DNA from: Eubacteriales bacterium
Lineage (GTDB): Bacteria > Bacillota > Clostridia > Oscillospirales > CAG-272
DNA length: 64,000 bases
Reading direction: 5' to 3'
Assembly (NCBI GenBank): GCA_050309735.1
Contig: JBNRMS010000072.1
Coordinates: 3,815 to 67,814, forward strand
The notes under the pieces are model-generated. The model saw only the letters and a program-made list of their open reading frames with translations, did not search any database and had not been told where the DNA came from. Position 1 is the stretch's first letter. Each line of letters starts with the position of its first letter. The translations under genes were made by a program, and so were the position numbers. Positions 17,113 to 50,531 of this stretch are shown piece after piece.

Positions 17113-17762
17113 GGGCGGGCGAAAAACAGACCTGCGATGCCGCGGTAATAACAAACGACGGCGATCTTTTTGAGCTGATAACCCTCCTCCTTGACGAGAT
17201 TGGATATAGCTCAAATAAAACGCCCGAGAGCGCGCCGGCTCAGCCCCGCCTTATGATAATAGACCTTGACTCCTCTCCCCCTCCTCCGCCCGACCAATCG
17301 AGCAGCGCGGCTATTATCGGAGTTACGGCGCAGGAAGATAGACTGACAGAGCAGACAAAAGCAGCTTGCGACGCCATTATCGGCCGCCCCTTCTCTTTCT
17401 CGGAGTTTCGCAGTCTTGTCGGCGAGGTTTGCCGGCAGGTGGGGCGACGGTCGGTAACGACAGTTGCGGGGCCGGGTTCGCTTATACTTGAGCTTGACAG
17501 CGCCACGCGGCGCGTCTCATTCGAAAACTCGAGCACCCATCTGACACCTAATGAATTTCTCTTTCTCTCGCACCTTGCCGCGCACAGAGGAGAAACTGTA
17601 ACGCGGAGCGAACTTACTGCCCTGATAGATACCGGCGGCAAGGGTTCAAGCAACTCAAACATTGCAGACGTCTACATCTGCACACTGCGAGCAAAGCTCG
17701 AAGAAGCCTTTGGCGTAAAACTGATTTACACGGTACGCGGCAGAGGATATATGCTAAAATAA
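17109..17762 (+). CDS. OmpR/PhoB-type winged-helix DNA-binding protein with receiver-like N-terminal half
   Basis: C-terminal trans_reg_C: LTPNEFLFLSHLAAHRGETVTRSEL...YTVRGRGYML. The N-terminal half keeps receiver-like strands (LMIIDLD, IIGVTAQ). It reads ND where a canonical receiver has the DD pair and GRPF where it has KP. ATGA overlap with the anti-sigma stop. Confidence 0.75.
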   Translation: MRAGEKQTCDAAVITNDGDLFELITLLLDEIGYSSNKTPESAPAQPRLMIIDLDSSPPPPPDQSSSAAIIGVTAQEDRLTEQTKAACDAIIGRPFSFSEFRSLVGEVCRQVGRRSVTTVAGPGSLILELDSATRRVSFENSSTHLTPNEFLFLSHLAAHRGETVTRSELTALIDTGGKGSSNSNIADVYICTLRAKLEEAFGVKLIYTVRGRGYMLK

Positions 17763-18480: not shown

Positions 18481-18606
18481 GTGCCGCATGAGATTATACT
18501 CGTGCGGCACGAAATAAAATCTCCCTTCGCCGGTATTACCCGTATCAGGTTATGGGGTTCGGACACAATGCCCATCTCAGCCGCCGTCGGCAGCACCCCC
18601 GATTCC
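18481..18606 (-). promoter_or_regulatory. TPP (THI-box) riboswitch with expression-platform hairpin
   Basis: Minus strand 18606->18520 reads CGGGGGUGCUGCC..GGCUGAGAUGGGC..GAACCCCAUAACCUGAUACGGGUAAUACCGGCGAAGGGAG. This matches the conserved THI-box blocks GGGGUGC, CUGAGA, ACCUGAU, GGGUAAUACC and GAAGGGA. A GTGCCGCA.../...TGCGGCAC hairpin at 18481-18510 follows, before the thiT SD. Confidence 0.9.
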
Positions 18607-18627
18607 TAATATTCAGTTTTTTTAAAA

Positions 18628-30842: not shown

Positions 30843-31244
30843 ATGAAAACCCCTATCGAATTTGACTACGATCTCTGGACTACGGAGGAAGGCAAGTGCA
30901 TGGTGCGCGTGAAGCTCACTGGCGAAGTATGCGAGGTCAGCAGAGAAACCATGAGAGTTCTACGCAACGAGGAAAAGAAGCTCAGACGCTCTAAGACCGG
31001 AGTACCTATTGCCGGTTGCAAGGATGAGGATGAGACGGCAACTCTTCTTTCGCTTGATTTTGTCAGTGTGCAGGATGCAGAAGAGATGAGTCCTGCTTGG
31101 CTGGAAGACCCGAACGATTTGGAAGAAACAGTTCTCACTTCCGTTATGGAGCAGGAATTCCGTTTCCGTTTCTTCTTTGAAGGGGCGGCTCGGAGCGATC
31201 CTCGGAGGGGTGAGAGTCCCATGATACTGCTTTACCGGTGGTAG
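30843..31244 (+). CDS. Small conjugative-element-associated protein (sigma-70 region-4-like family), probably C-terminally truncated
   Basis: Start at ATG 30843 (AAGGA SD). MKTPIEFDYDLWTTEEGKCMVRVKLTGEVCEVSRETMRVLRNEEKKLRR resembles, from memory, small ORFs found beside xis/int in Firmicutes conjugative transposons. The tail FRFRFFFEGAARS... looks out of frame and has no HTH. Confidence 0.5.
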   Translation: MKTPIEFDYDLWTTEEGKCMVRVKLTGEVCEVSRETMRVLRNEEKKLRRSKTGVPIAGCKDEDETATLLSLDFVSVQDAEEMSPAWLEDPNDLEETVLTSVMEQEFRFRFFFEGAARSDPRRGESPMILLYRW

Positions 31245-32963: not shown

Positions 32964-33052
32964 TGGCGGAGACGGTGGGATTCGAACCCACGGACCCTTG
33001 CGGATCAAACGATTTCGAGTCGTTCTCGTTATGACCACTTCGATACGTCTCC
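32964..33052 (-). tRNA. tRNA-Ser (anticodon CGA), CCA-encoded, long variable arm
   Basis: Minus strand: GGAGACG-TA-TCGAAGTGGTCATAACGA-G-AACGA CTCGAAA TCGTT-TGATCCGCAAGGGTC-CGTGGGTTCGAATCCCACC-GTCTCC-G-CCA. It shows a 7-bp acceptor stem, a 5-bp anticodon stem, a CGA anticodon, a class II variable arm and a GGTTCGAATCC T-loop. Confidence 0.92.
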
Positions 33053-33188
33053 GTATTTATCTCAACATCAGCACCTCAGAAAACGGGGAGAACTGATGGG
33101 GAGAACAAAGAAAAATATTCAGTTAAAGATACCCGAAAAACCCCGTAAAATCAAGGGTTTCCGGTCAGGGAGCTACCGGATAGCAACC

Positions 33189-33232
33189 ACGATTTCGAGT
33201 CAGGGCCGTTATAACCACTTCGATATCTCTCC
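33189..33232 (-). repeat. Partial copy of the tRNA-Ser 5' half (acceptor 5' strand through anticodon loop), copy B
   Basis: 36/44 identical to 33009-33052. Similarity stops at the 3' side of the anticodon loop. No T-arm or acceptor 3' strand follows. Confidence 0.8.
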
Positions 33233-33394
33233 ATGTATTTTCAACCGGAAATCCGGTTTGAAAACTATTAAATTGTGTTCGGGAAAATTGCGGGAAAACT
33301 GCGAGATGAGGTTTGAATTTGCTGCACCGGAAAGTACAAAATGTGCCGATAAATCAAAGCTTTTCAAGCCCGAAGCCATCAGCCGACCGACTTT

Positions 33395-33435
33395 GTTTCG
33401 AGTCAGCCCCGTTATGACCACTTCGATATCTCTCC
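33395..33435 (-). repeat. Partial copy of the tRNA-Ser 5' half, copy C
   Basis: 37/40 identical to copy B and 34/40 to the real tRNA. Same truncation point in the anticodon loop. Confidence 0.8.
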
Positions 33436-33478
33436 GTAGAAAATATATATAAACACGCGCCGATATCGGGCGCGTGTT
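33436..33478 (-). terminator. Intrinsic terminator after ribF
   Basis: GC-rich stem AACACGCGCC..GGGCGCGTGTT around the GATATC loop. On the minus strand it is followed by TATATATATTTTCTAC. Confidence 0.6.
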
Positions 33479-38590: not shown

Positions 38591-38766
38591 TCATAGTCGC
38601 AAGTGAATATCTCCCGTGTGAGACCTCGCCGTTGCGACATCGCAGGTTTCTTTGAAACCTGCCGGCGTGTATATTATATCATAGTCGCAAGTGAATATCT
38701 CCCATGCGCCACCTCGCCGTTGCGACATCGCAGGTTTCTTTGAAACCTGCCGGCGTGTATATTATA
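38591..38766 (-). ncRNA. Tandem pair (2 x 88 bp) of an unclassified conserved structured element (candidate leader RNA / sRNA)
   Basis: Units are 38766->38679 and 38678->38591, differing only in an 8-10 nt internal patch. Each unit has CACGCCGGCAG, a 9-bp hairpin GCAGGTTTC-AAA-GAAACCTGC, and the inverted repeat GTCGCAA...TTGCGAC. A third copy lies at 49399-49477. Confidence 0.55.
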
Positions 38767-38789
38767 CCATAGTTAGAGGGGTTTGTCTA
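38761..38789 (-). promoter_or_regulatory. Promoter driving the tandem element and ABC operon
   Basis: Minus strand: TAGACA (38789-38784), 17 nt, TGgTATAAT (-10 at 38766-38761). The same ATAGACAAA -35 context occurs at the 49.37-kb copy. Confidence 0.55.
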
Positions 38790-39177
38790 TGTTGCACCGT
38801 GCTTTTTTATTTGGCACAATCGACTTTCTGCTACCATTGATATTATTTCTTCGCGCTGATACGAGTGTAATTTAAAATGATTAATGGTATGCAGCTCAGC
38901 ACGAGAGCGCACTCACGCCCACCCGTCACAAACATATTATAATCCCGGTTACAAAGGCCGCAAAGCTTGCCATAAGCGCAACCTTTTTATGCAGTCCCTC
39001 GCGTGCCCGAAGCAGGCAAATTGTTAATCCAAATCCTTGTATTGTCAAGCGGCAAGTCTTGAAAACACATGCGGGCGGGGGGCGGGTGCGGTCAAGCCCT
39101 TTCTCTGGTTTGGTAATAATGCACAATTTTTGTGTCGCTTTTTATTGAATATTCGCCTTGTGTTCGTTCTTTTGCTG

Positions 39178-39206: not shown

Positions 39207-39262
39207 AAGGTGGCTGCTGTGTCGCGGAGTTTTTCGCAATTATGACACGGCACGGAGGATGT

Positions 39263-41572
39263 ATGGACCTGTTTATAAATCGGCAGCTTCGCCCGGAGCA
39301 GCTTGCCGAGCTTAGATCTCACGCACCTGACGACGACCCTATTCTCTTTGCAATTGTAGGTGATTTATCCGAGAGCGCGCATTATAATCATAATGTCCTT
39401 GCCTTTACCTCAAAAACATTTTTTACATATGATTTTGACAATGGTAAGCTCGGTCGGATTTTCAATATATCCGATGTCAGCGAGATTTTCAACAAACGCA
39501 TGTATGGCAATGCTGTCATGCGTACCAAGATTAATGGCGGTGAAGTCATAGATGTCTACCGTTTCACTTTTGCTGTGGCGGGTCTATGTGATGCCGCCGT
39601 TTACTATGTCAACTCAATTCGCGGCGGAACCGACCTTAAGGAAGCGCTGGCAGGAATTGAGGCGACATATGAAAAGCAACTGTCTACCTGCCCTAAGTGC
39701 GGCCGCACTCTCTCCGCGCCCGGGGTAAATTGTATAAGCTGCGAGAGCAAGGGAAAAATCGTCTCAAGGCTCACCAAATATATGAAGCCCGAGGCGCATA
39801 TACTTATTTTCTCGGTTATCCTCTCGGTAATCACAACAGCCCTTGCCCTCATCCCCCCATTCCTCAACCGCACACTTGTCGATGACATACTTGTCGCCGG
39901 CAACAGAGCCAACACAACAATATATCTGTTCGGCCATTTTGAGATGAATGTCCAGCGCAGCCTTATGATAATAGGCGTTATGCTGGCGCTGAATTATGTT
40001 CTGCGATACGGCCTTGGGGCGGTTCGCGGGTATTTTTTGCGTAAGTCAGGCGACAGAATTGTTAAATCGCTGCGCGACGATGTTTACAGACACGCACAGT
40101 ACCTCCCTATGCGCTTCTATGACAAAACCTCGACCGGCTCTGTCATCAACCGTATCGCGGGCGACAGCTCAACCCTGCAATCCTTCATGCTCCGCATAAC
40201 GCAGGAGGTGGTCGTTCAATTTTTCAAGCTGATAGGCATTATAATAATAATGCTCGTGATGAACTGGCGCCTTGCCATCTATTCGCTAATCCCCGTGCCC
40301 TTCGTCGCTATCGGCGCGCGTATCTTCTCGAAGAAAATCGCGCCCTTCTACCGTCGAATCTGGCGCCGCTGGTCCGCGGTTTCGGGAGTGCTGACAGATA
40401 CCATCCCCGGCATCCGGGTTATCAAATCCTTCACAAATGAAAAAAATTCGACCAGGTTCTTCGAGGAGAAGAATCAGGAGTGGTGCGAAACAGACATCAA
40501 AGCCGGCAAGATACTCAATATTTATCCGGCGGTCGTAAACTTCTTTGTCAGCTCGGGCTCAATTGTAATCTGGATGCTCGGCGGGCTTGCCGTTATCGGG
40601 GCGACAAATGTGTCGGGAAACCTCACTGTCGGACTTCTCATGTCCTTCATCTCATACGCCTCGATGTTCTATGAGCCTGTTAACTTCTTTGCAAATCTCA
40701 ACGATTCATACCAACACGCCCTCTCCTCGGCCGAACGAATATTCGACATACTTGACGCCGAACCCGAGCACGACTTCGGCAAGGGCAATACCCTCCCCGA
40801 GGTCAAAGGCGCCATTGAGTTCCGCGATGTCTCCTTCTCGTTTGACCGCACCAAGAAGGTGCTTAAAAATATAAATCTTAAGATAGAACCGGGCGATATT
40901 GTCGGTATTGTCGGCACCACCGGCTCGGGAAAATCAACCCTTGTTAACCTGTTTTTGAGGTACTACGACCACTACGACGGGAAAATATTGCTTGACAACA
41001 CCGATATCCGCAAGATTGATATGGAATTTTTCCGTTCGAGCATAGGTTATGTCCAGCAGGAACCGATGATGTTCCACGACACAATCTTCAATAATATTGC
41101 ATATGGCGACGAGAAATACAGCGTTGAGGACGTGATAGCCGCCGCCGATATCGCAAACGCGCACGAATTTATAATTCGCCAGCCCGACGGTTATGACTCG
41201 GTGCTCGGCGAGCGTGGAGTCGGGCTCTCGGGCGGCGAGAGACAGCGGCTTTCAATCGCCCGCGCGGTTCTAAAAAATCCGAGCATACTCGTCTTTGACG
41301 AGGTGACAGCCTCGGTCGACTCCGAAACAGAACACCTTATTCAGGACGCTATCGAGCGCCTTATCAGCGGGCGCACCACCATCATGATAGCCCACCGCCT
41401 CTCAACTCTTAGCAAGGCTAACAAGATTGTCGTTGTCGACAACGGCGCGATAATAGAATTCGGCTCGCCCGAGGAGCTGATGGCGCAAAAGGGAAAATAC
41501 TACCGCCTTGTAGAAATTCAGACTATGTCTGAGAAGATCAAGGAGGAGAAGGCGAAGGAGAACTTTGAATGA
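39263..41572 (+). CDS. ABC exporter (fused permease/ATPase) with N-terminal cytoplasmic domain and zinc ribbon
   Basis: Start moved to ATG 39263 (GGAGG SD). About 130-aa N-terminal soluble domain, then the CPKCGRTLSAPGVNCISC ribbon, six TM, Walker A GTTGSGKST, LSGGERQR, ILVFDEVTASVD. Confidence 0.85.
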   Translation: MDLFINRQLRPEQLAELRSHAPDDDPILFAIVGDLSESAHYNHNVLAFTSKTFFTYDFDNGKLGRIFNISDVSEIFNKRMYGNAVMRTKINGGEVIDVYRFTFAVAGLCDAAVYYVNSIRGGTDLKEALAGIEATYEKQLSTCPKCGRTLSAPGVNCISCESKGKIVSRLTKYMKPEAHILIFSVILSVITTALALIPPFLNRTLVDDILVAGNRANTTIYLFGHFEMNVQRSLMIIGVMLALNYVLRYGLGAVRGYFLRKSGDRIVKSLRDDVYRHAQYLPMRFYDKTSTGSVINRIAGDSSTLQSFMLRITQEVVVQFFKLIGIIIIMLVMNWRLAIYSLIPVPFVAIGARIFSKKIAPFYRRIWRRWSAVSGVLTDTIPGIRVIKSFTNEKNSTRFFEEKNQEWCETDIKAGKILNIYPAVVNFFVSSGSIVIWMLGGLAVIGATNVSGNLTVGLLMSFISYASMFYEPVNFFANLNDSYQHALSSAERIFDILDAEPEHDFGKGNTLPEVKGAIEFRDVSFSFDRTKKVLKNINLKIEPGDIVGIVGTTGSGKSTLVNLFLRYYDHYDGKILLDNTDIRKIDMEFFRSSIGYVQQEPMMFHDTIFNNIAYGDEKYSVEDVIAAADIANAHEFIIRQPDGYDSVLGERGVGLSGGERQRLSIARAVLKNPSILVFDEVTASVDSETEHLIQDAIERLISGRTTIMIAHRLSTLSKANKIVVVDNGAIIEFGSPEELMAQKGKYYRLVEIQTMSEKIKEEKAKENFE

Positions 41573-49206: not shown

Positions 49207-49367
49207 ATTTATTCCTCCAAAAATAGATAGTTTCCGGCAGGGTGCCGGATAGAGTTGCTGTCACCGACAGTATATGAAAAACAATTCAAGCTTGACAAAA
49301 CTTTGCCGCAATGTAAGAATAATAATCTCCCCCGAGCGCAGCCTGCGCTAAAGTTGGCGGCGCGATA

Positions 49368-49396
49368 TAGACAAAAGAGCGATTATATGATATACT
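49368..49396 (+). promoter_or_regulatory. Promoter of the third motif copy / lipid-kinase gene
   Basis: TAGACA (49368-49373), 17 nt, TGaTATACT (-10 at 49391-49396). Same architecture as at 38761-38789. Confidence 0.5.
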
Positions 49397-49398
49397 AT

Positions 49399-49477
49399 GC
49401 ACGCCGGCAGCTTTTGAAAAAAGCTGCGATGTCGCAACGGCGAGAGAGCGCATGGGAGATATTCACTTGCGACTATG
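49399..49477 (+). ncRNA. Third copy of the unclassified structured element
   Basis: GCACGCCGGCAG-GCAGCTTTT/GAA/AAAAGCTGC hairpin-GATGTCGCAACGGCGAG..GCGCATGGGAGATATTCACTTGCGACTATG. Near-identical to the 38.6-kb units except for compensatory changes in the hairpin. Confidence 0.55.
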
Positions 49478-49547
49478 TGTGCCGCCAAAGAGCGGGGCAG
49501 GAATTTTAAAATTTATTGGCGCCGCCCTGTGCGGCGTGAGGACTTAA

Positions 49548-50531
49548 ATGAAGCACTATTTTTTGCTGAATCCCGCGGCGGGCAAGGGAAAAAGTTGCGG
49601 CCGGCTTGAGGCCGATATTAAAGCCCTCTTTGGCGAGCGAGGGCTCGGGGTTGTGATTTATTACACCGCCGGGGTTGGAGACGCCGAGAGATATGTCGGG
49701 CAGATTTGCGACAAGGAGGTCGGCGAATGCCGTTTTTATGCCTGCGGCGGCGACGGAACGCTTGGCGAAGTGATAAACGGCGCCGTAGGCTTTTCTCATG
49801 CGTCAGTCGGGGTTATTCCGATTGGAACGGGAAACGACTTTGTCCGCAACTTTACGCACTCGGATAATTTTCTGAGCCTTGAGGCTCAATTAGAGGGAAG
49901 CACTGTTGCCCTTGACCTCATAAAATATAACGGTCGCTATTCGGCCGTTACCCTCAACGCCGGATTTGATGCCGAGGTTGTTAAAATCGTGGCTCGAATC
50001 AAGCGAAACCCCGCCGTTCCGGGCAAGCTTGCCTATGTCCTCGGCGCGCTCTGGCAGCTTATCCGAAAGCCGGGGGTGAAAATCAAGGTTTCTATCGACG
50101 GCGCGCCCGCCGAAGAGCGCAATCTCCTCCTTACCTGCATCGGAAACAGCGCATATTGCGGCGGCGGCTTCAATTCGGGCCCCTGCGCCAGCCCTGCCGA
50201 CGGGCTTATAGACGTCTGTTTCATCAAAAACGTCTCAAGACTCAAGTTTTTATCGCTGCTCGGCTCATATAAAAACGGGAAATATCTCTCGCGCAAGGGT
50301 ATAGACAAAATCGTTGAATACATAAAATGCGAAAAGCTCGATATCTCCTTCCCCGAGCCAAGAGTTGTGAGTGTAGACGGCGAGTTGCGCGAGCTTGACA
50401 TGCTCACGCTCGAATTGGCGCCCGGAGCGCTGCGCTTCTGCCTGCCTGCCGGTTGCGAGGTCATCACGCCTTCCGATATTCCCGCCTGCGCCAAAGTGAA
50501 GACTCGCGCCAGCGGGGCAACGGTTGGATAG
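49548..50531 (+). CDS. Diacylglycerol-kinase-family lipid kinase (YegS/BmrU/DagK type)
   Basis: FYACGGDGTLGEVING, the DAGK catalytic-domain signature. 327 aa. Confidence 0.85.
   Translation: MKHYFLLNPAAGKGKSCGRLEADIKALFGERGLGVVIYYTAGVGDAERYVGQICDKEVGECRFYACGGDGTLGEVINGAVGFSHASVGVIPIGTGNDFVRNFTHSDNFLSLEAQLEGSTVALDLIKYNGRYSAVTLNAGFDAEVVKIVARIKRNPAVPGKLAYVLGALWQLIRKPGVKIKVSIDGAPAEERNLLLTCIGNSAYCGGGFNSGPCASPADGLIDVCFIKNVSRLKFLSLLGSYKNGKYLSRKGIDKIVEYIKCEKLDISFPEPRVVSVDGELRELDMLTLELAPGALRFCLPAGCEVITPSDIPACAKVKTRASGATVG

Follow-up and report, generated by a model that had tools for sequence, protein, structure and literature searches.

An 88-bp repeat behind extended -10 boxes occupies the leader of a lipid-kinase gene in a Eubacteriales bacterium

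The leader of a lipid-kinase gene (dagK) in a Eubacteriales bacterium contains a segment, positions 49391-49478 of the 64,000-nucleotide stretch of DNA analyzed here (the window), that is probably one unit of a near-species-restricted 88-bp repeat, multiplied behind the extended -10 boxes (TATGR-TATAAT) of pre-existing sigma-A promoters. Our best reading is that the repeat is a self-amplifying promoter/5′-leader module, and we have dropped its interpretation as a lipid-specific RNA switch. The family is a new addition to the promoter-bearing dispersed repeats. Where a sequence-only reading of the window had counted the dagK element as a third copy, the source genome (1.86 Mb) holds approximately 100 units at 75 loci, such that about 3% of its transcription units, essential genes and tRNAs included, bear the 88-nt module fused at the -10 box.

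The features at dagK, together with the related units elsewhere in the window, are as follows.

49368-49396, plus strand: resident sigma-A promoter of the lipid-kinase gene (consensus scan, 10/12 matches with TG)
49391-49478, plus strand: 88-nt repeat unit, columns 1-88 (covariance-model score 103.9 bits)
49407-49427, plus strand: 9-bp hairpin GCAGCTTTT-GAA-AAAAGCTGC (from the sequence; folds in every unit tested)
49431-49473, plus strand: second helix, GTCGCAA (49431-49437) paired with TTGCGAC (49467-49473)
49479-49547, plus strand: rest of the lipid-kinase leader, with the Shine-Dalgarno sequence GAGGA at 49538-49542
49548-50531, plus strand: lipid-kinase gene, 327 aa, DAGK_cat plus YegS_C (YegS/BmrU/DgkB type; Pfam PF00781, 3.3e-21; PF19279, 7.1e-23)
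38766-38679 and 38678-38591, minus strand: two tandem units of the same repeat behind the promoter of an ABC exporter/MBL-fold operon

The dagK promoter consists of a -35 box TAGACA (49368-49373), a 17-nt spacer, an extended -10 TG (49388-49389) and a -10 box TATACT (49391-49396), and this last hexamer doubles as columns 1-6 of the unit. Judged from the -10 box, transcription would start at about 49401-49403; the 9-bp hairpin, whose stem runs from 49407, begins approximately 5-7 nt 3′ of this predicted start. The second helix encloses a variable segment and a near-invariant purine block, GGGAGATATTCAC (49454-49466). The locus carries a single unit, which ends at CTATG-T and does not regenerate a -10 box (3′-junction class '0'). 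In the remaining leader, 49479-49547, we recognized no terminator, the promoter scan called no sigma-70-type promoter, and no alignment with the corresponding leaders of congeners was possible. The fold of the dagK leader as a whole is unexceptional (z = -1.86). Orthologues of the kinase were found in 10 of 10 congeners.

The sequence-only reading had placed the element on the plus strand, co-oriented with the lipid-kinase gene and preceded by the same promoter layout as the copies near 38.6 kb. These claims hold: the unit at 49391-49478 aligns without gaps to the two units at 38591-38766 (86-88% identity), and the consensus scan calls TAGACA-17-TG-TATACT at dagK and TAGACA-17-TGgTATAAT at 38789-38761 on the minus strand, where it serves the ABC exporter/MBL-fold operon. 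In pairwise comparison, 49386-49477 on the plus strand is complementary to 38680-38771 (88%) and to 38592-38683 (86%). The flanking blocks said to be essentially identical, CACGCCGGCAG, GATGTCGCAACGGCGAG and GCGCATGGGAGATATTCACTTGCGACTATG, are all present; the last is exact against the promoter-proximal unit, the distal unit having CTCACACGGGAG there. The hairpin in both copies of the 38.6-kb region is GCAGGTTTC-AAA-GAAACCTGC, so that two pairs differ from the dagK copy with both sides changed. The fully compensated differences that had drawn attention to the element are thus confirmed in the sequence.

Searches of the source genome returned 62 matches by BLAST, 108 by iterated nhmmer and, with the covariance model that had been proposed as a check, 132 at E <= 1, the last figure including partial and hairpin-only matches. 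The copies are 80-95% identical over 88 nt. Some stand alone and others form head-to-tail arrays of two to four units, the period being exactly 88 nt; 5′ fragments and ~40-nt deletion forms also occur. Tandem neighbors are mutual closest relatives in 19 of 26 cases. A complete C:G to G:C swap separates 4 of 12 adjacent unit pairs, which simple local duplication does not explain.

The two boundaries of the unit behave differently. On the 5′ side, the upstream similarity of first units ends at TATGR (T in 42, A in 45, T in 49, G in 50 and R in 51 of 58 first units), and farther upstream the sequence is unique to each locus. At least four of six matches to TTGACA at a spacing of 16-18 nt precede 57% of first units, compared with 21% of all genomic TATAAT sites. 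The 3′ boundary is ragged: 13 loci stop at CTATG, 15 within the next -10 box and 16 just past it, the remaining loci run 11-82 nt into a further unit, and the 3′ flanks are unrelated between loci. TATGR(TATAAT) is seen at both unit ends. Given that it is identical at all loci and that its 3′ copy ranges from absent to complete, the pattern fits shared homology as well as it fits target-site duplication. The ragged 3′ ends match no classical transposon.

We next considered how far the repeat extends beyond this genome. BLAST found it in none of 40 relatives, the covariance model gave no credible match in 120 genomes of the family (97 genera), a genome contig collection returned chance pattern matches only, and collections of viral contigs, plasmids and phages contained no match, so that we rejected a phage or plasmid origin. 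The nearest congener has one copy, diverged and partial. A covariance-model match on contig C1 of congener G007 (28.9 bits) was set aside; it sits between two genes in antisense and probably represents a terminator hairpin of the ordinary kind. Rfam 15, run at the gathering threshold over the whole window, recognized only TPP, tRNA and pemK, all elsewhere, and offered no family for the unit; a permissive scan of 49250-49600 gave noise only (E >= 1.4).

Congeners retain the same -35 and extended -10 boxes at dagK, polA, gyrB and the ABC operon, and the unit is absent from all four. At dagK, the promoter ATAGACAAA-N-TGATAAAAT is kept in congeners without the repeat, and in congeners G004 and G003 the ABC operon has the promoter ATGGACAAAA / ATAGACAAAA ... 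TGnTATACT and, immediately behind it, a short leader. The shared ATAGACAAA at -35 does not belong to the element, being ancestral at both promoters in species lacking it, and the idea of a conserved leader fails on the orthologous dagK, ABC, polA and gyrB leaders of these congeners. That the promoters persist without the unit points to an insertion specific to this lineage, placed immediately behind an extended -10 box that was already resident. No close sister genome with exact empty sites was found: DagK gave a best identity of 69% both in a metagenome scan and in protein searches, and a HAD hydrolase adjoining an array gave 44%. Even the closest relatives available are distant, with DagK identities of 66-69%, and exact pre-insertion sequences therefore cannot be reconstructed.

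The hairpin stem is well maintained across the family. In 49 aligned units, 97% of cells in the stem are paired and two pairs covary, namely 21:33 (C:G in 26 units, G:C in 21) and 25:29 (C:G in 28, U:A in 18). This family-wide dimorphism indicates that the stem is constrained, and other copies keep the stem rather than varying it without compensation. To that extent, the earlier claim of a hairpin preserved by compensated changes is supported. Covariation does not serve as proof of an RNA here, since the compensation amounts to two dimorphic pairs common to the whole family and hence to few events. Compensatory changes in short perfect palindromes of repeat families are weak evidence for functional RNA. 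The second helix is paired in 98% of cells yet almost invariant, with compensated changes only in unit C37_441 and in the G007 copy. At columns 11-13, one-sided changes keep G-U pairing with columns 40-42 in 22 cases and break it in three; in the two main helices, the count of G-U pairs against A-C mismatches (13 vs 8) is not decisive.

Constraint is also uneven along the primary sequence. Between adjacent tandem units, GTCGCAA (columns 41-47) never differs and GGGAGAAATTCAC (columns 64-76) differs once, compared with 0.09-0.25 differences per column elsewhere. The near-invariant blocks GATGTCGCAA, GGGAGAAATTCAC and TTGCGACTATG imply that some protein or RNA recognizes the sequence specifically, a partner that our best explanation does not name. 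Three further candidate features were rejected: an inner hairpin (columns 50-52/59-61) is only 78% paired; a different partner for TTGCGAC, columns 55-62, appeared in single-sequence folds, but by column counts the variability of columns 55-60 would frequently disrupt this helix; and a conserved mini-ORF, MGEIHLRL, has its ATG in 69% of units and its TGA stop in 45%.

The element had been linked to envelope and lipid functions on the basis of the two loci in the window. Genome-wide, a co-oriented ORF (100 aa or longer) starts within 300 nt downstream at 57 of 67 loci (approximately 85%), at a median distance of 54 nt, so that the element is not found mostly away from 5′ regions. The orientation of the unit follows the gene at 45 loci and does not at 14. 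GC skew assigned 32 loci to the inferred leading strand and 27 to the lagging strand, in an approximate test given the weak skew of a draft genome. The housekeeping genes downstream are unrelated (gyrB, polA, glyA, metK, hup, trpS, proS, murF, dxs and rimM), and two tRNA genes (tRNA-Trp and tRNA-Gln) are also among them. We therefore rejected a lipid/envelope regulon, and the envelope- or lipid-linked leader proposed earlier falls with it. Several copies precede genes for LysR-type and, as judged by eye, AraC-type regulators; at loci C35:63358 and C21:168, co-oriented LysR and membrane-protein genes lie downstream.

Several other explanations of the unit have to be weighed. A cis-regulatory leader RNA (riboswitch or protein-binding) would have a trans factor or ligand recognize both helices together with the invariant GGGAGAAAUUCAC loop, thereby co-regulating all genes that carry the unit. 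The sense orientation and 5′-proximal position at approximately 85% of loci would agree with this, as would the hairpin covariation, the excess of retained over broken G-U pairs at columns 11-13, the strong local constraint on blocks between adjacent units and the two isolated compensated changes in the second helix. However, the unit lacks what marks a riboswitch family, namely a match to an Rfam model, conservation across taxa (it is essentially single-species) and a coupled expression platform, with neither a sense-strand terminator after the unit nor a conserved Shine-Dalgarno pairing. The orthologous leaders of congeners function without it, the genes served share no function and include tRNAs, the G-U to A-C balance in the main helices does not decide the matter, the units come as arrays of 1-4, as 5′ fragments and as ~40-nt deletion forms, and a copy identity of 80-95% is not what old structured RNAs show. 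We consider a leader RNA of this kind unlikely. A terminator function was likewise rejected, as only weak pattern matches on the antisense strand were seen. A DNA operator array, in which a global protein binds GTCGCAA/TTGCGAC and the palindrome and acts on the adjoining -10 box, appears highly improbable. The invariant inverted heptamers and the perfect palindrome do lie immediately 3′ of the -10 box, and the copies before LysR-type and (by eye) AraC-type genes would suit such a system, but the heptamers stand 29 nt apart with variable sequence in between, the palindrome tolerates G:C to C:G swaps that would alter a base-specific operator, no candidate regulator is at hand and the genes served are unrelated.

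There are two further alternatives. The unit could be a REP/REPIN-like or IS200/IS605-derived non-autonomous element whose hairpin is recognized by a Y1 (HUH) transposase that moves single-stranded DNA. The genome does encode an intact RAYT-like Y1 gene (C29:5935-6432, with HxH and Y motifs; Pfam PF01797, 26 bits), plus one fragment, and 8 of 10 congeners lack such a gene; a conserved hairpin lies near one end of the unit, and exact head-to-tail arrays would follow if the 3′ end of the element recreated its target. Against this stand the context of the Y1 gene, which has no flanking repeat or hairpin and lies on a contig without a copy, and congener G010, which has at least eight Y1 gene copies and no repeat. 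The units, moreover, are direct tandem repeats rather than inverted REP pairs, their two helices are dissimilar, their 3′ ends are ragged, and their orientation is independent of the replication strand, unlike that of IS200/IS605 elements, although the strand test is approximate. We rejected IS200/IS605-like mobilization on grounds of orientation and Y1 gene context, and we regard the broader Y1 explanation as improbable. It is also rather doubtful that the repeat is functionless DNA, maintained by slippage, unequal crossing-over and gene conversion, with a hairpin perfected by quasi-palindrome correction and not by selection. Template switching can give rise to perfect hairpins and preserve them, with changes that look compensatory (PMC8794818), and could mimic the compensation seen here, only two stem pairs covary and both are shared dimorphisms, arrays grow locally, copy number and 3′ extent vary freely, and congeners manage without the element. 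An origin of this kind would nevertheless leave unaccounted for the strongly uneven conservation along the unit, adjacent units included, its near-exclusive sense placement at bona fide promoters and its persistence before essential genes.

Returning to the promoter-anchored repeat, we propose that at dagK the unit was inserted between an intact ancestral promoter (TAGACA-17-TGaTATACT) and the old leader. Barring an undetected downstream promoter, it would form the first ~75 nt of a 5′ UTR of ~145 nt, with a predicted 9-bp stem-loop a few nucleotides from the 5′ end and a second helix, GUCGCAA/UUGCGAC, that would display the conserved purine tract GGGAGAWAUU. We infer that the unit senses no ligand and defines no lipid/envelope regulon; it would act as a generic promoter/leader module, neutral or mRNA-stabilizing at dagK. 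The stem constraint could serve propagation or the RNA, and hairpin-templated correction during replication could also yield compensated differences. The unit would be tolerated because a TGnTATAAT promoter is kept or rebuilt. Junction sequences suggest that it spreads by short-homology recombination or template switching at TATGRTATAAT, followed by local duplication into arrays; no mobilizing enzyme or intermediate was identified. Tentatively, the repeat may be a selfish promoter cassette with the extended -10 box itself as its attachment site, integrating through the short homology TATGRTATAAT at resident TGnTATAAT promoters and growing into arrays later, with its blocks and hairpin bound by a host or element factor (the lineage-restricted Y1 transposase being a candidate) or acting as an RNA 5′ stabilizer. 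If true, such a cassette would be of a kind previously undescribed, and because it would always leave a working promoter, its presence before gyrB, polA and aminoacyl-tRNA synthetase genes would be explained.

These results remove a false riboswitch/regulon lead, as the covarying hairpin before two lipid-related genes is a genome-wide repeat. They also provide a clean natural case of promoter and leader reuse, in which sister species use the same promoters without the module. If the module alters transcription or mRNA stability, the repeat could retune many housekeeping genes at once, and if it targets -10 boxes, it would represent a new insertion strategy.

Among known systems, the REP2 repeats of Neisseria bear promoters and carry a ribosome-binding site. 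Correia elements (Siddique et al., 2011; PMC3024310) are also promoter-bearing Neisseria repeats. They have terminal inverted repeats and a TA target duplication. The present family resembles both in being a small, abundant, species-restricted intergenic hairpin repeat that supplies promoter elements and, by prediction, is co-transcribed into 5′ UTRs. By contrast, the 88-nt unit has neither the terminal inverted repeats and TA duplication of Correia elements nor the ribosome-binding site of REP2. To our knowledge, neither of these has been reported as anchored at a resident -10 box or arrayed head-to-tail with one promoter per unit. Terminal inverted repeats of the MITE type are likewise absent, as the ends TATAATATAC... 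and ...GCGACTATGA are not mutual inverted copies; the sole inverted heptamers lie inside the unit (columns 41-47 and 77-83). The BOX elements of Streptococcus pneumoniae have the modular structure boxA-boxB(n)-boxC and affect the expression of neighboring genes. Like BOX, the repeat is a Firmicute intergenic sequence with a tandemly reiterated module and a stable predicted secondary structure, but it reiterates a single unit type, with no BOX-like modules seen, its relation to promoters is defined and its orientation is strongly biased.

REP/REPIN-RAYT systems (Bertels and Rainey, 2011) comprise short hairpin repeats that are lineage-restricted and number tens to hundreds of copies. Our family matches them in these respects and in the single-copy intact Y1 transposase gene of the genome, and differs in having no inverted doublets, an unflanked Y1 gene, an orientation that follows genes, and a longer, promoter-bearing unit. 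A different parallel is offered by the 5′ stem-loops of aprE and ermC and the STAB-SD polypurine tract of cry3A, which are established 5′ mRNA stabilizers in Firmicutes, each belonging to a single gene and having a measured effect on half-life (PMC3997798). The unit likewise combines a predicted stem-loop near the 5′ end with a conserved purine tract of the leader that resembles a Shine-Dalgarno sequence, GGGAGAAA, and by analogy it may stabilize mRNA. Unlike those stabilizers, it is a genome-wide module that also precedes tRNA genes, and its effect is only inferred.

The closest comparison is with putative mobile promoters (PMPs), which a commentary on them describes as promoter sequences reused before unrelated genes (Matus-Garcia, Nijveen and van Passel, 2012; PMC3575422). 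According to that commentary, PMPs are non-coding sequences that share 80% identity or more across 50 nt or more and precede non-paralogous genes of a single genome, the families are mostly pairs, and the screen covered -150 to -50, mostly excluding the -10 box (PMC3575422). The present units, which share 80-95% identity along 88 nt and precede unrelated genes at 75 loci, fall within this definition, and like PMPs they correspond to no mobile element or RNA family described so far. In contrast to PMPs, the family numbers approximately 100 units, its similarity starts at the extended -10 box and is predicted to enter the transcript, and its members form exact 88-nt arrays.

Although the sequence-only reading took the leader of the lipid kinase gene dagK for the third copy of a structured element, this leader carries one member of a large repeat family. 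BLAST detected 62 matches to the 88-nt unit in the window's own genome (G000; 1.86 Mb, 82 contigs), iterated nhmmer detected 108 matches at 75 loci, and a covariance model derived from 49 units returned 132 matches at E ≤ 1, partial and hairpin-only ones included, with E-values that are rough owing to quick calibration. The units occur singly or as 2-4 head-to-tail copies with a period of exactly 88 nt, and 5′ fragments (columns 1-39, 1-52 and 1-65) and deletion forms of about 40 nt are also present. The consensus is TATAAT ATAC ACATTG GCAGSTTTY-GAA-RAAASCTGC GATGTCGCAAC GGCGAGGTAGCGCAT GGGAGAAATTCAC TTGCGAC TATGR. The dagK stretch 49386-49477 (+) is complementary to 38680-38771 (88%) and 38592-38683 (86%), the site of two tandem units in front of an ABC exporter/MBL-fold operon, and the three copies align without gaps.

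Features of the dagK promoter and the 88-nt units (window coordinates unless a G000 contig is named)
49368-49373, +: dagK promoter -35 box, TAGACA, then a 17-nt spacer
49388-49389, +: dagK promoter TG
49391-49396, +: dagK promoter -10 box, TATACT
5′ of the hairpin, +: ATGCACGCCG, dagK copy
49407-49427, +: hairpin GCAGCTTTT-GAA-AAAAGCTGC, dagK copy
3′ of this hairpin, +: GATGTCGCAAC, then a variable stretch
49454-49466, +: GGGAGATATTCAC, dagK copy
49467-49473, +: TTGCGAC, dagK copy, with CTATG ending at 49477
38766-38679 and 38678-38591, -: exact units behind TAGACA-17-TGgTATAAT
49423-49438 (-), 38632-38645 (+) and 38720-38733 (+): antisense terminator-like patterns
C18:~1165-1205, C21:~17520-17560, C68:~84620-84675 and C71:~1310-1365: ~40-nt deletion variants

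In the ~40-nt variants, the hairpin's 3′ arm is joined straight to TTGCGACTATG (GGCAGGTTTCCGAGAAACTTGCGACTATG), consistent with a deletion between CTGCGA and TTGCGA repeats. The antisense strand of each unit bears a weak terminator-like pattern (TTGCGACATCGCAG, then a T-rich run, equal to the hairpin arm), which may be a mere by-product of the sequence. A 31-codon upstream ORF (49452-49547, +) starts within the dagK unit and its TAA abuts the dagK start codon (TAAATG). It exists because CTATGA reads CTATGT in this copy; its short form is not conserved family-wide, with the ATG in 69% of units and the stop in 45%. A second, GC-rich repeat (…CCGCCCCCGGCCGGG…CCGGGGTCGGGGTGAGGYAAGTGCAGAAACGG) lies immediately 5′ of two 88-nt units, upstream of C56:28909 and C8:11679.

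Comparison with congeners shows that the unit was added onto promoters already in place. Synteny around dagK is kept in these genomes, including the divergent small gene upstream, and their dagK intergenic regions contain the same promoter followed by unrelated 80-130-nt leaders without the unit.

Promoters at unit-bearing loci of G000 and at their counterparts in congeners
dagK, congener G007 and closest metagenomic relative: ATAGACAAA-N-TGATAAAAT
dagK, congeners G003 and G004 and one metagenomic contig: ATGGACAA-N-TGATAAAAT
polA, congeners: TTGACA-17-TGgTATACT, then a 35-50-nt leader
polA, G000: the congeners' promoter, then the unit, then a leader of comparable length
gyrB: same promoter without the unit in congeners, unit present in G000
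ABC/MBL operon, congeners: ATGGACAAAA...TGGTATACT (G004) or ATAGACAAAA...TGATATACT (G003), then a short leader
ABC/MBL operon, G000: the congeners' promoter, then two tandem units

Since congeners lacking the unit carry the same promoters, the ATAGACAAA -35 box, previously counted as part of the element, was ancestrally present at both promoters and does not depend on the repeat. The G000 genome has 124 TTGACA extended -10 promoters; ATRGACAAA with TGnTAnnnT at promoter spacing occurs at only three sites.

ATRGACAAA-type promoters in G000
49367-49396, +: dagK
38761-38790, -: ABC/MBL operon
C48:11086: ECF-type sigma-factor gene (identified by eye)

At dagK and the ABC operon, this box is conserved in congeners without the repeat, and it may mark a regulon of few, envelope-related genes or else a special type of -35 box or operator, independent of the repeat. 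The leader of the ECF sigma-factor gene contains, near C48:11200, a GC-rich palindrome related to that GC-rich repeat.

We next consider the unit boundaries. In 58 first units, upstream similarity ends five bases 5′ of the -10 hexamer, with unique sequence beyond; these five bases are T (42/58), A (45/58), T (49/58), G (50/58) and R (51/58). Within this unique sequence, a match of at least 4/6 to TTGACA at 16-18 nt accompanies 57% of first units, compared with 21% of TATAAT sites genome-wide. This makes TATGR-TATAAT the left end, and the same sequence is formed where a unit's own end (…GCGAC-TATGR) meets the start of the next. The right end is ragged: 13 loci, dagK included, end at CTATG, 15 end within a regenerated -10 box, 16 end just 3′ of one, and the remainder carry 11-82 nt of a further unit. 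This pattern is a poor fit to a fixed-end transposon. Judged from these junctions, the pattern fits integration and resolution inside the shared TATGRTATAAT motif, with local duplication thereafter; in 19 of 26 cases, tandem neighbours are mutual nearest relatives.

The two hairpin pairs reported as changed on both sides between the dagK copy and the other two (GCAGGTTTC-AAA-GAAACCTGC) are indeed so changed, and the corresponding pairs, 21:33 and 25:29, alone stand out in mutual information across the family. Among 49 units, 21:33 is C:G in 26 and G:C in 21, 25:29 is C:G in 28 and U:A in 18, and stem cells are 97% paired, well above slid controls. Helix 2 (GTCGCAA/TTGCGAC) is 98% paired and almost invariant, with compensated changes only in C37_441 (U:A to C:G, 42:82) and a G007 copy (A:U to G:C, 47:77). 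Adjacent tandem units are identical in columns 41-47 and differ once in 64-76, versus 0.09-0.25 differences per column elsewhere, so these blocks are constrained in place. RNAalifold added a pairing of columns 11-13 with 40-42, in which all 22 one-sided changes retain G-U pairs, a hint of selection acting on the sense-strand RNA, although the 5′ side alone varies. In the two main helices, the excess of G-U pairs (13) over A-C mismatches (8) is not decisive. A complete C:G to G:C swap separates 4 of 12 adjacent unit pairs, a sign that subfamilies recombined or that correction was templated by the hairpin (PMC8794818). Hairpin covariation therefore reflects few events and does not separate an RNA from a DNA hairpin.

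Outside G000 the unit is nearly absent. Rfam 15 holds no matching family, BLAST found no match in 40 relatives, the covariance model found no credible match in 120 same-family genomes (97 genera), a pattern search of one genome per species in 185,579 species gave chance matches only, and viral contigs, plasmids and phages gave none. With laxer filters, one credible diverged copy was detected in the nearest congener, G007 (L103:1520-1575, on G007:C15), with 76% identity, counted by hand on the alignment, to columns 39-88 plus TATA. It comprises the unit's 3′ half (ATGTCGCAG...CCTGCGCTATGATATA) and belongs to the leader of a gene orthologous to window ORF 39263-41572, a large ABC-transporter gene that diverges from the locus of the tandem repeats. 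In G000, the corresponding leader (39208-39262) is ~60 nt shorter and retains only TGTCGC...GCAATTATGA; the G007 sequence is either an old copy that G000 has since lost or a possible progenitor of the unit's 3′ half. A second G007 match, antisense between two genes, resembles an ordinary terminator and was rejected. Given the credible copy, the family is older than, or crosses, the G000/G007 split, and expanded only in G000. DagK identity to the closest relatives is no higher than 66-69%.

By crude ORF calls, which missed some genes, the unit points the same way as the following gene at 55 of 72 loci; in a direct test, 57 of 67 loci had an ORF of 100 aa or more in the same orientation, beginning no further than 300 nt downstream (median distance 54 nt). 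Unit orientation tracks the gene (45 versus 14), not the GC-skew strand (32 versus 27). The genes served are unrelated to each other (gyrB, polA, glyA, metK, hup, trpS, proS, murF, dxs and rimM and, by eye, AraC-type and LysR-type regulators, HAD hydrolases, a sulfatase, a rhamnosidase, cdaA, dpaA and others), and tRNA-Gln and tRNA-Trp are preceded by units at 18 and 32 nt, respectively. With such a gene set, tRNAs included, the family defines no envelope or lipid regulon and has no mRNA-specific role. Elsewhere, the window contains a TPP riboswitch (18505-18610, -; 74.5 bits), a pemK RNA motif with a 35-nt insert (31137-31224, +; 44.5 bits) and a long-arm tRNA (32967-33052) whose 5′ portion is repeated 180 and 203 nt away (family D2; 32967-33438).

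We regard the unit as most likely a dispersed promoter/leader repeat; that it is a cassette targeting -10 boxes is a possible reading of fairly low probability. That it is a regulatory leader RNA or riboswitch is improbable, being contradicted by its distribution, gene set, arrays and missing expression platform. Equally doubtful is a REP/RAYT- or IS200/IS605-like element: G000 does possess a single intact RAYT-like Y1 transposase gene (C29:5935-6432; L088:1303-1803; 166 aa, HxH and Y motifs), missing from 8 of 10 congeners, plus a fragment (C35:59138-59296), but the gene is not flanked by the repeat, congener G010 has at least eight Y1 copies without the repeat, and unit orientation is independent of the replication strand. 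A functionless repeat whose hairpin is maintained by template switching is likewise unlikely, if slightly less so, and an array of DNA operators very unlikely.

At dagK, the ancestral promoter is intact with the unit immediately behind it and, since this copy ends at CTATG, no second -10 box. Between the unit and the Shine-Dalgarno sequence (GAGGA, 49538-49542), a scan called no terminator and no sigma-70-type promoter. Transcription would start at about 49401-49403, giving an mRNA that begins with a short tail and the 9-bp stem-loop, followed by helix 2 presenting GGGAGAUAUU; the whole unit has a predicted fold of about -25 kcal/mol. In Firmicutes, the two classical kinds of 5′ stabiliser are stem-loops near the 5′ end and purine tracts that resemble Shine-Dalgarno sequences (PMC3997798), so the effect is most likely neutral to stabilising rather than switching. 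At most other loci the regenerated TGnTATAAT could fire too, yielding the native leader, which would explain why insertions before essential genes are tolerated.

Operationally, the 88-nt family qualifies as putative mobile promoters (PMC3575422). It would work like the promoter-bearing repeats of Neisseria, Correia elements and REP2, and its reiteration resembles that of BOX. It differs in its lack of terminal inverted repeats, in its lack of modules and in its fusion at the extended -10 box; if it is indeed a cassette targeting -10 boxes, it would represent a variant form among promoter-bearing repeats.
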